Positions 12,893-42,045 of a stretch of 64,000 nucleotides of DNA are shown here, piece after piece; position 1 is the first letter of the stretch, and every line of letters begins with the position of its first letter. The stretch spans positions 32,116,001-32,180,000 of the forward strand of contig NC_043013.1 of the NCBI RefSeq assembly GCF_006345805.1. The letters run 5' to 3'. This DNA comes from Octopus sinensis (Eukaryota). Below the pieces are notes generated by a model. That model worked only from the letters and a program-made list of their open reading frames with translations. It ran no database searches and had not been told where the DNA came from. The position numbers were made by a program, and so were the translations under genes.

Positions 12893-13500
12893 TAATATCG
12901 ACCGTAGACTTGCATAAGTGTTTCAAGTTCTTTTTAACTCATCTTCAGAGTTGGCAAGACATTATCTATATATTGCAGTATATTTACATAAAGCAAATCA
13001 TTAAAAAACAAAAATAAAGCCACTTACAAGAAATCTAACTGGAAAATCGACAGAAACAGTTCTCTCACTTTGTTGCTACTGTTAGATAGTATCAACTATT
13101 GAAAAACTACTTTTGGTGGTGTGATCGAAATATCACATCAGATGCAATATTACAGTGTGATACTATAAATATTGTCTAATATTCTGGTAATACCAGTGTG
13201 ATTGCTGAAGATAAACCAAAAATAACTTGAAACGTGTAAAGAGTGTAAGGTCGATAGATAGCTATACACCTGTATATAAATGCATTATAAATTTTGTTTT
13301 TGACTGTGACTCTAAATTACGCATTAGAGCTTGTTGAACCGGTGATAATAATATATGTTTCTGATATTTATATAGGAAAGATGACTTATTGGACATTATT
13401 GGAACGCTGGAGTAGTGGTAAAGAACTACAATATGACTTGAAAATCTAAAATTCTTTCTCTCTCTCTCACTCTCTCTCTCTTTCACACACACACACACAC

Positions 13501-22771: not shown

Positions 22772-22779
<8 letters not shown>

Positions 22780-23142
22780 GTAAAGAGTGAAAAAACGACA
22801 GAAGGCTTAATTGTTAAAAAATATATATATTTGCGTCAATATGTCTGAAGAATATTAGAAATTTTTTTTTTTTAATTTTTTTCCCTTTATAATGACATAA
22901 TTTTTAAAGAAAGACCGGTTTCGCATTTAGCTTTTCAAATTTGAAAAGCTAAATGCGAAACCGGTCTTCTTTAAAAATGATGTCATTATAAAGGGAAAAA
23001 AAATTTTTGTTTTAATTTTCTAATATTCTTCAGACATATTGACGCAATATATATATTTTTTAACATTAAGCCTTCTGTCGTTTTTTCACTCTTTACTATT
23101 TTTTATATATTCACCCACGTGCTTTCACAAACCAACTTTCTT
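22772..23142 (+). repeat. Palindrome (~165-bp arms, no spacer, centre 22939/22940) plus tail within (TA)n; Penelope-like pLTR inversion
   Basis: aaaatagtaaagagtgaaaaaacgacagaaggc...cttttcaaa|tttgaaaag...gccttctgtcgttttttcactctttactatttt. Confidence 0.9.
22941..22972 (+). ncRNA. Partial minimal hammerhead ribozyme, U3:A8 core variant (mirror copy on - strand at ~22907-22938)
   Basis: TTGAAAA-gc taaat gc-GAAAC-cg-GTC; the 5' strand of stem I is missing at the inversion centre. Confidence 0.55.
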
Positions 23143-34858: not shown

Positions 34859-35502
34859 CAAAATATGAAAGATATGTCTGTATACGTTTGGTTTTATAGC
34901 AGCACTCTCCCGATCAACGATTCCACAAAGTCATATGACTTTGACGTAACACTAATTTTAATACGACTTGTTGATGCAATAACATTCACCTTTTCGACAG
35001 TTTCAAACTAAGATTAATAAGTTAATGCTTGCAATATAAGTGACTGTCTAAAATTGAATTAAAGCGTTACAATTTTACTCAGATGATATGACTCGCTTTT
35101 GTCAGTTTACAAAGTGGATATTGACATTGAAAACTGGTCAGCTAGACATGTTTTCACACATATGTATGTTTGTTGATATAAAGATATGTGTGTGTCTGTG
35201 TTTATATATAAACCACACGCACATATAAATATATAGATATAAATATACAAACGCGTCCATGTATGTATTTATGTATTTATGTATGTATATGTATTCGTTG
35301 CTCAAGCCCCATGAATATCTTGGTCTGAAAATTCGGAACTTCATCTCCCGAATGCATGTAAAGTTAAGCAACGTAACATGTATTAAAATATTTATTATCC
35401 ACAGTTACAAACATATACGTATCTATATACATTTATATATGCACAGTGACACACACACACACAAATGCACACATACACATACACACATACACACACACAC
35501 AC

Positions 35503-35545
<43 letters not shown>

Positions 35546-35651
35546 ATATAGTATATCAAATTAGAGACAAACCACTATTATGCAAATCAAACAAAGAAAG
35601 ACTTAGCCAATACATAAAATAATTTATATAAATTAAATTTAACATATGAAT

Positions 35652-35703
35652 AACCACTACGATCGTTTCGTGTCAGCACATCTTAGACATTCTTCAGGTG
35701 GTT
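35652..35703 (-). ncRNA. Minimal type-I hammerhead ribozyme, canonical core
   Basis: aaccac-CTGAAGA-a-tgtc..gaca-c-GAAAC-gatc-GTA-gtggtt: 6-bp stem I, 4-bp stem II, palindromic ACGATCGT stem III. Confidence 0.9.
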
Positions 35704-35766
35704 TCAAAACTTCTTAGCGAGTTTTAAATTCTTTAAATAATTTAAAACTCGCTAAGAAGGTTTTGA

Positions 35767-35818
35767 AACCACCTGAAGAATGTCTAAGATGTGCTGACAC
35801 GAAACAATCGTAGTGGTT
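35767..35818 (+). ncRNA. Minimal type-I hammerhead ribozyme (mirror copy)
   Basis: aaccac-CTGAAGA-atgtc..gacac-GAAAC-aatc-GTA-gtggtt; one change breaks the stem III palindrome. Confidence 0.85.
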
Positions 35819-36008
35819 ATTCATATGTTAAAATTTTAATTTATATAAATTATTTTATGTATTGGCTTAAGTCTTTCTTTGTTTGATTTGCATAATAGTG
35901 GTTTTGTCTCTAATTTGATATAATATAATATTTTACTATAAAATTGGATTCAATCTTAAATCTGATTTTTCCTTGTAAATTTGGATTTATTCCCTAATAT
36001 TTATTATA

Positions 36009-36048
<40 letters not shown>

Positions 36049-36087
36049 TATATATGTATATATATATAAAACAAGTGTTTACTCCGA

Positions 36088-41009: not shown

Positions 41010-41806
41010 TTCTTTAGGGGACCAAAAACGTAACAGAAATTTAGTCACATGTGGGCATGATCCGAAACTCTGTCCTTGTATTTAGACATGTGGTAGGGTC
41101 TAAGCTGCTTTTCCAGATAAGCCATCTCTCCATGTCGCATAACCGCACCTTCCGCTGCCGTTAGTGTAGGGCTTACATCTGGCCAAAATCTTCCATTGTA
41201 TGTTATAATCGACACCTTTATCTCTTAAGACCAAATATGATTGGATAATTGTGTCGCTTTTCTTTGTTCCAGTGCCTAAAGCTCAAAGTGTGGTTATTGA
41301 ACCTGCCTTGAAATTACCCTCTGTCAGGCCCACGTATTTCTTCGTCGAAACGGTGTCTTAGTGGTTATAGAGTTTACAGTAGCTTCATATATGATGGTCT
41401 TGGACATGCAAGCTCCATTTAGCGGGCACAATTCTTTATTCCTGCATAAACAGCTGTTTTCTTCTTGTGTTTGTATGTTATGATTGATTATGTTTTTAAA
41501 ATTGATAGTTGAACTAAAACTAATTTTTAAATTGTGTCTATTGAAGAGTTTCCTATAAGCATGGTTAACTGGAAAATGTCTATCTATCAGTGCTAGGAAA
41601 TATTTACCTATATTGAAGGCCACCTCGGGTGAGTAAGGGGGCGTAAACCAGATGACCTTCCTATTTCTATTATTCCTTTTCCTTACTGTTGGGCTGGTGA
41701 TAGGTGTATATTTTATTTTTTCGCTAAAACCACTATCTTTTAAAGCTTTATTATAAACTGGGGCAACGCTATTGAAGATGTCCTCATTAGATGAGAGGCT
41801 AGAAAT
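41010..41806 (-). pseudogene. Penelope-like RT thumb + GIY-YIG endonuclease, frameshifted
   Basis: ISSLSSNEDIFNSVAPVYNKALKDSGF..RKVIWFTPPYSPEVAFNIGKYFLALIDRHFPVNH..KLFNRHNLKISFS..CLCRNKELCPLNGACMSKTIIYEATV..GNFKAG..NHTLSF..LNTRTEF..CPH. Confidence 0.9.
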
Positions 41807-42045
41807 CCTAAATTTCTGTTACGTTTTTGGTCCCCTAAAGAAAACGGATAGAACATGCTTTCTGTGTTATGTCCCAAGAAGATTTTATATATTTTTTATA
41901 TATTTTTATATATTTTTATGTATTTTATATAATTTTTATGACGAAAAATGCGAGCGATGTATAAGTACGCAGGCAAAGCAGAGTTATAACAGGGTAATTT
42001 CCCTTCATTTTTAACGGTATTTTTTCATAACGTTTTCAAATAGCC

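Follow-up and report, generated by a model that had tools for sequence, protein, structure and literature searches.

Hammerhead ribozymes have been described repeatedly in Penelope-like elements (PLEs), and what follows refers to the portions of the cited papers that were available to us. Dual minimal hammerheads lying 100-700 bp apart on opposite strands were reported by Cervera and de la Peña (2014; PMC4209133), according to whom PLE hammerheads are poor cleavers in vitro and in vivo evidence is lacking. In another PLE, Poseidon PAc of Anolis (Frangieh 2024; PMC11167929), both target strands are cut and extended, reverse transcription starts at two internal sites and a dimer is predicted; in the available text no RNA reads begin or end at the ribozyme cut in Anolis. 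The retention of introns in PLE copies is described as unexplained (Craig 2021; PMC8557442), and an antisense template has been proposed for it (Arkhipova 2013; PMC3846280).

The family described here shares several features with these systems. Head-to-head terminal repeats (pLTRs) with a tail at one end and palindromic junctions are known from the inverted pLTRs in the available parts of Craig 2021 (Fig. 2), PMC3846280 and PMC2377424 and from PMC4209133, and in published pLTRs and minimal hammerheads (PMC8557442, PMC3846280, Schostak 2008 (PMC2377424), PMC4209133) the intron's 3' end adjoins helix I and helix III is palindromic, as is also the case here. The head-to-head geometry and the opposite-strand hammerhead pairs are already in print. 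The family also resembles the non-LTR retrozymes of animals, which the available preprint text (10.64898/2026.07.22.740005) characterizes as short, non-coding and PLE-derived with a type I hammerhead. Retrozymes form head-to-tail arrays with one hammerhead per unit, whereas the copies found here are head-to-head pairs or solo arms that appear to have been made repeatedly from intron-bearing parents.

The inverted insertion in the window

The analysed window is a stretch of 64,000 nucleotides from Octopus sinensis (GCF_006345805.1, contig NC_043013.1, positions 32,116,001 to 32,180,000, forward strand). It contains a head-to-head pair inserted into a (TA)n target, the left flank of which extends over 35511..35549 and the right flank over 36006..36070. 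Alignment of the two arms delimits an inverted repeat of 371 bp in total (35552-35734 against 35735-35922), in which 2 substitutions and gaps totalling 5 bases separate the arms along ~188 aligned bases. Both hammerhead motifs were located in it, so that the 370-bp fold-back with two outward-pointing motifs on opposite strands, as described in a first-pass annotation of the sequence, was borne out. The right arm (35735..36005, plus strand) is a spliced pLTR copy composed of leader exon, hammerhead, AT-rich 5'UTR and tail; the left arm (35552..35734, minus strand) is a spliced pLTR copy reading outwards, which ends at a "short" 3' end and has no tail. The remnant of leader exon 1 (35737..35759, plus strand) begins a few nucleotides short of the family leader start A[G/C]TTCATA. 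At the exon-exon junction (35759..35760, plus strand) AAG is joined straight to GTTTTG, which is the site of a GT-AG intron of ~1.2-1.3 kb in long copies; the corresponding junction of the left arm lies between 35710 and 35709 and has lost one G. The tail of ~75 nt (35931..36005, plus strand) is present on one arm only. Inverted pLTRs that are truncated 5' and have a one-sided tail are among the features by which PLE insertions are recognized. In Craig 2021 (PMC8557442) tails of 30-40 nt are given in the available text, compared with 75 nt in the window family.

Three further places of the window deserve mention. A second, unrelated fold-back in (TA)n with arms of ~170 bp is located at 22775-23115; its arms each begin GAAA-CCGG-UC, resembling the 3' half of a hammerhead with palindromic stem III, and it probably represents a further inverted insertion of a PLE, cut short within the ribozyme. 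An old, diverged head-to-head pair of CUGAAGA…GAAAC motifs (12900-12950, minus, and 13205-13265, plus) is only weakly alike and possibly represents a third PLE family. Finally, a frame of 164 amino acids at 41324-41818 (minus strand) with a CLCRNKELC (CxCx5C) linker followed by IIYEATV is a fragment of another Hydra-like PLE ORF.

Ribozyme motif and parent element

The plus copy of the type I hammerhead motif (35767..35818, predicted cut after 35812) consists of AACCAC (35767-72), CUGAAGA (35773-79), stem II, GAAA (35801-04), GUA (35810-12) and GUGGUU (35813-18). The minus copy (35652..35703, predicted cut between 35658 and 35657) has the commonest sequence of its family and carries the palindromic stem III ACGAUCGU which had been noted for it at first reading. 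In the plus copy G>A at 35806 breaks the palindrome, and a self-duplex energy of +0.3 versus -10.0 kcal/mol is predicted by folding. The exact hammerhead pattern has 236 matches in the genome (G000) and 0 for a reversed control, and the window motif is therefore not a chance match. The designation "canonical" given to both motifs goes too far: the core and stems I and II are those of a type I hammerhead, but stem II is closed by A·C (35780/35800) in place of the canonical G10.1-C11.1. An unpaired base on each side of stem II, often U and U, is also found in several Hydra hammerheads of the available supplement (Craig 2021, File S2). The window hammerhead differs in sequence from the hammerhead listed for Hydra-1_Obim (PMC8557442), and term searches of the available supplement text of that paper gave no match to the window family.

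Covariance models did not detect the motif. With Rfam Hammerhead_1 (RF00163), the search suggested in the first-pass annotation, there was no match at the gathering score anywhere in the window; a scan of 35500-36050 returned no hammerhead family at E<=10, and the 7 RF00163 matches obtained genome-wide from 74 scored candidates all lie outside this locus. Isolated 62-nt motifs folded no better than shuffles (z -0.62 and -0.12). Matches of the window to miRNA precursors in Rfam were rejected as generic hairpin matches below their own thresholds. Across 20 subfamily rows the CUGANGA/GAAA/NUH core is invariant and three pairs of stem I as well as three pairs of stem II hold in every row; the length of loop II varies widely, and the stem II closing pair is standard in only nine rows. 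In five of the 20 rows the stem III palindrome CGAUCG is changed to CAAUUG (pair G-C to A-U), possibly by one event. No compensatory change in stem I was found among these rows and covariation totals do not beat shuffles, so the lack of stem I/II covariation, which the first-pass annotation had named among the observations that would speak against its reading, is largely what the 20 rows display. As a separate observation, arms of L335, L298 and L358 are truncated at the palindromic stem III (offset -9); the fold-back of L335 is centred on this palindrome, and the dimerization palindrome may thus also seed DNA fold-back.

It had also been proposed that the locus is a self-masking switch in which cleavage competes with hairpin formation, each strand holding one hammerhead plus its antisense. 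On either strand of the fold-back the antisense arm is transcribed before the sense motif, and folding gives stems I and II a predicted pairing of 0.000 at each of four lengths of transcript per strand, the shortest ending 6 nt beyond the cut and the longest being complete; masking would therefore be permanent and leave nothing to compete. Forcing stems I and II in the fold-back transcript costs ~80 kcal/mol by folding prediction. No more than 50 of the 112 pairs sampled contain two whole hammerheads, and the distance between the arms of these pairs ranges from -27 to 3288 nt, so the geometry of the pair is not conserved. Permanent masking and unconserved geometry together make masking a by-product and not a regulator. 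The palindrome is moreover lost in the plus copy; a selected riboswitch of this kind is hardly credible. The two window motifs cannot dimerize in one RNA because they lie on opposite strands, and by prediction a read-through transcript would fold into a long hairpin, double-stranded along its length, in which neither hammerhead can form.

Long copies disclose the element from which the unit derives. They contain an AT-rich stretch of 1.2-1.3 kb upstream of the hammerhead, which begins with GT after the leader of the window copy (…CAAGAAG/GTACGT) and ends TTTTAG; in intron-bearing copies of the window family GT follows directly 3' of leader exon 1, and broken RT and GIY-YIG frames sit further upstream in the long copies. 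In the parent the end of an ORF is followed in turn by the leader exon, the GT-AG intron, the hammerhead, the tail and the start of an ORF. In L123 a GIY-YIG-type frame lies upstream of exon, intron, hammerhead and tail, in L135 the tail enters an ORF beginning MEFTGKIEP, and in L135, L139 and others it runs on into the 5'UTR and an RT/GIY-YIG ORF. Motifs of the ORF after the tail in L135 and L139 are DKT, GLYRDD, CxCx5C, YIG, CxxC and CxH. The L135 frames thus possess the Hydra-clade marks DKT, CxCx5C linker, CxxC and CxH together with the (TA)n target, and read RIKWK at the place of the Hydra-clade RWK motif. A C-terminal GIY-YIG domain, the same motifs, (TA)n and a pLTR hammerhead are given for this clade, including Hydra-1_Obim, in the available part of Craig 2021 (PMC8557442). 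In L123, L135 and L139, which all belong to sister subfamilies of the window copy, the pLTR is linked to an ORF containing RT and, at the C-terminus, GIY-YIG; an intact ORF of the window's own subfamily was not found, the ORF-linked copies being broken. Look-alikes from an atlas (scores 0.93-0.96, counted as a single evidence source) carry RVT_1, HTH_animal and GIY-YIG, and a Pfam scan of four broken L135 ORF pieces gave nothing significant. Judged by these sequence relationships, the window unit is a terminal repeat of a Hydra-clade PLE, which agrees with the link to PLE hammerheads with palindromic stem III made in the first-pass annotation. The locus itself is an ordinary by-product or debris of such an element and, having neither intron nor upstream region, likely a dead end.

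A Pfam GIY-YIG search of the genome was discarded as a route to the parent: its 30 loci are other PLE families, and only L039 carries the window unit, which is there an unrelated insertion beside the domain. Another GIY-YIG family in G000 (for example C6:12733272 and C1:207477583) with several open frames of 781 amino acids and identical scores is a young, probably intact PLE family. Between RT and endonuclease, L135 (5900-6100) has a long asparagine/lysine-rich run, which may be compared with the N-rich inserts of rotifer Penelope elements as far as these are described in the accessible literature.

Spliced copies and their proposed joining into pairs

The junction of the window arms is the exact GT-AG spliced product of the intron-bearing pLTR. 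Exact junction patterns identified 152 spliced as compared with 67 intron-type junctions. Retention of the intron in genomic copies, by which PLEs are otherwise recognized, is seen neither in the window copy nor in these 152. The available parts of the published papers on inverted pLTRs stress intron retention, whereas here most counted junctions are spliced and the copies end at the sense leader start; the leader intron of 1.2-1.3 kb and the spliced copies were not found in the available text of Craig 2021 (PMC8557442). The short form could in principle be due to DNA deletion. AGGT occurs at both intron edges in the main subfamilies, where a microhomology deletion would give the identical junction since both edges read AG/GT. 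However, the intron is also lost exactly where the edges share no repeat, namely in L039 (GATAA/ATATTT, compared with L116) and in L323 (GAAT/ATTCTG, compared with L095 and L106). It is these repeat-free subfamilies, with 2 spliced copies checked, and the copy numbers that argue against deletion.

A tree was built from the region common to 152 rows. In it the labels "spliced" and "intron" are intermixed and require 38 changes, of which at least 11 are forced by well-supported branches, with bootstrap values not fully settled; five sets of identical rows hold both labels. Because of this intermixing and of the identical rows with both labels, spliced copies must have arisen repeatedly from intron-bearing parents. 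A self-propagating non-autonomous family, MITE-like or retrozyme-like, with a single ancestor, already without intron, behind the 270-bp unit or the palindrome as a whole, is difficult to reconcile with such a tree. It would account for the high copy number and the fixed 5' end, and animal retrozymes are argued to be non-autonomous PLE derivatives in the accessible text of the preprint (10.64898/2026.07.22.740005). Yet the centre junctions mostly differ from locus to locus, and among the loci inspected no head-to-tail array of whole hammerhead-bearing units was found, the window locus being a head-to-head pair; we consider this origin decidedly improbable.

Twenty loci run from the tail into the ORF, and all eight of them that reach a recognizable splice site keep the intron end, the splice-site pattern used having missed one subfamily. 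Since intron-bearing rows were mostly selected by the upstream query, their extension upstream was not used as independent evidence. No mixed spliced/unspliced pair was seen among 112 pairs, of which 13 were left without an assigned label and L231 and L234 proved to be intron-type on inspection. Among 121 spliced arms only L027 runs, by eye, far upstream of A[G/C]TTCATA, which suggests that read-through or distal pLTR transcripts are sometimes spliced too.

The spliced arms have a single stopping point in common, the leader start A[G/C]TTCATA. The preceding base is T in 25 of 25 intron-bearing copies and G in 16 of the 30 spliced arms left after removal of six perfect fold-back junctions (P 6e-6 with 17% G as reference, and 0.002 when counted more strictly), although a large number of these Gs agree with the partner arm or filler as well and one palindromic site entered the count from both strands. 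An extra G at the 5' end fits reverse transcription of the cap, as with LINE-1. A deletion between AGGT repeats does not explain a fixed 5' end with an untemplated G.

The pairing of arms was analysed at a larger number of loci. A genome search with the right arm (G000) gave 1173 candidates, 40 of which were scored. The sample L001-L256, drawn through hammerhead, junction and upstream queries, comprises 112 head-to-head pairs and 100 solo arms when 30 Pfam loci are set aside. The arms end on their 3' side at either of two points, which correspond to ~35931 and 36005 of the window: 103 of the 112 pairs combine a short with a tail end, two have two tails, two have two short ends and five are unclassified. 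Inner ends are variably truncated, the tail arm being shortened 26 times and the short arm 26 times. Two start sites are proposed on account of the short-and-tail combination with truncation on either arm. We regard it as likely that the two intron-less leader copies of the window, head to head in (TA)n, originate from one insertion event with a capped, spliced sense mRNA as template. The element protein would nick both strands of the (TA)n target, reverse transcription would be primed internally at two sites ~75 nt apart, one per strand, inside the first pLTR of the mRNA, both cDNAs would extend to or towards the cap, and their 3' ends would be joined via microhomology or filler. Poseidon PAc of Anolis (PMC11167929, available text) is alike in that two internal RT starts define the tail in vitro and both strands are cut and extended; it also has an AT-rich target and uses uncleaved RNA as main template. 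Its start sites lie inside the ORF, whereas those deduced here lie upstream of the ATG.

For the step in which the cDNAs are joined, the main rival starts from the same template: one cDNA snaps back, self-primes and copies itself, and later central deletions scramble the longer arm. Perfect AGTT/AACT fold-back junctions at the leader start, found at 6 of 36 sites in three subfamilies, would be expected from such a process, which is how junction palindromes are interpreted in the accessible part of Arkhipova 2013 (PMC3846280). Private changes shared between the arms of a single locus (L294, L354) point in the same direction, as does a correlation of arm lengths, counted by hand (the cut is crossed by both arms in 11 pairs, by a single arm in 3 and by no arm in 8). 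A tail-started cDNA that snaps back should however leave the tail arm longer at the centre, and of 52 pairs 26 have the tail arm as the truncated one. L009 combines a short arm that possesses the complete leader start and the additional G with a mere stub of a tail arm, and in L209, L211 and L066 the leader start is reached on either side. The argument for twin priming is blurred by the fact that a palindrome may be deprived of its centre at a later time; all in all, a self-copying cDNA appears unlikely to us and separate priming of the two arms is preferred. At the centres of L020, L187, L196 and L006 short repeated copies of the leader start are present, as would be expected if the template had been switched several times at the 5' end of the RNA.

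Arm starts at the predicted cut and the probable template

A first comparison of arm ends with the predicted cut, made on pairs chosen for the hammerhead, gave no excess: of 48 truncated arms 2 ended no further than 2 nt from it. A sample conditioned on the hammerhead cannot show pairs made wholly from cut RNA, and realignment misplaces tail-only stubs; for these reasons it was replaced by pattern-based counts. Genome-wide matches within one pattern set were classed by the base before GUGGUU. The nine matches with a base other than A comprise six true starts at the cut, one chance match and two point mutants. With A at this place there were 146 matches, of which 114 were examined and yielded 19 truncations over positions -3..-46, one at -1 and two at -2. 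At offset +1 three of six matches are true starts, and at +2 none of one match. Nine starts at 0/+1 were thus observed compared with ~1.1 expected from a background of 0.55 per position over -3..-46 (P 2.5e-6; 5e-4 with the background doubled). An unconditioned set of 95 arms on C1-C3 added 2 more exact cut starts, and two further subfamily patterns gave 5 matches with three exact starts (one already counted), one ambiguous case and one point mutant. The four extra exact starts outside the main pattern set are L308, L328, L379 and L380, and the exact-start loci inspected have different flanks.

The peak is not confined to a single base. The control at -2 is raised as well, with 6 true junctions in 13 matches as compared with 237 intact, so that the start peak has to be given as -2..+1; four of these six junctions come from two kinds of tandem-restart locus in which TA precedes the cut-site sequence. 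Arm 5' ends are also frequent in the AT-rich zone +4..+15. The frequent starts at -2 and +4..+15 would be in line with stalling of the reverse transcriptase at the folded ribozyme or with a bias of junctions towards AT-rich sequence. Stalling at helix III predicts ends at -1, however, where there is 1 in 114, and not at 0/+1 with nine; +2 has none. An account that combines such stalling or bias with deletion between AGGT repeats as the source of the short form is very unlikely. The excess of arm starts at the predicted cut suggests that the hammerhead does cleave in the living animal. Most arms cross the predicted cut, and uncleaved RNA is for this reason the main template. In the available text on Poseidon PAc (PMC11167929) there are no reads at the cut, whereas here a minority of genomic arms start at it.

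Tandem restarts were observed at individual loci. L387 (G000:C10:19255781-19258807) is a head-to-tail concatemer reaching from the predicted cut to the short end, with two whole units and a partial one and no hammerhead core; it restarts twice in tandem at the cut sequence after the short end. Shorter restarts at the predicted cut site are found in L383 and L290.

From these DNA copies we infer cleavage, splicing and priming; four sequencing runs, made up of contigs, contained no usable splice joint or end, which argues neither for nor against them. In the parent mRNA the hammerhead would likely cut after GUA in a smaller part of the molecules, acting probably in dimeric form or with the help of protein, and 3' fragments of cleaved mRNA would be copied as well. 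We consider it moderately probable that the template is a capped, spliced sense mRNA and not an antisense RNA, that the PLE hammerhead cleaves in vivo with its 3' product being reverse-transcribed and even concatenated, and that introns survive only via unspliced starts in the distal pLTR, while spliced starts in the 5' pLTR result in intron-less stubs. A full-text literature search, which did not extend to Arkhipova 2003/2006, Evgen'ev and Arkhipova 2005 and Lünse 2017, found neither spliced PLE insertions nor insertions beginning at the cut.

For the window family an antisense template would be ruled out by copies that are exactly spliced and bear the mark of a cap. Clustering of insertion ends at the cut offers a cleavage test that relies on the genome alone and is applicable to any PLE-rich assembly. 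The rule of one tail and one short end, with either arm truncated, extends the result of two start sites from the test tube to about a hundred natural insertions. The window family thereby gives testable evidence on the template strand, the fate of the intron and ribozyme activity in vivo, questions which the field calls open.
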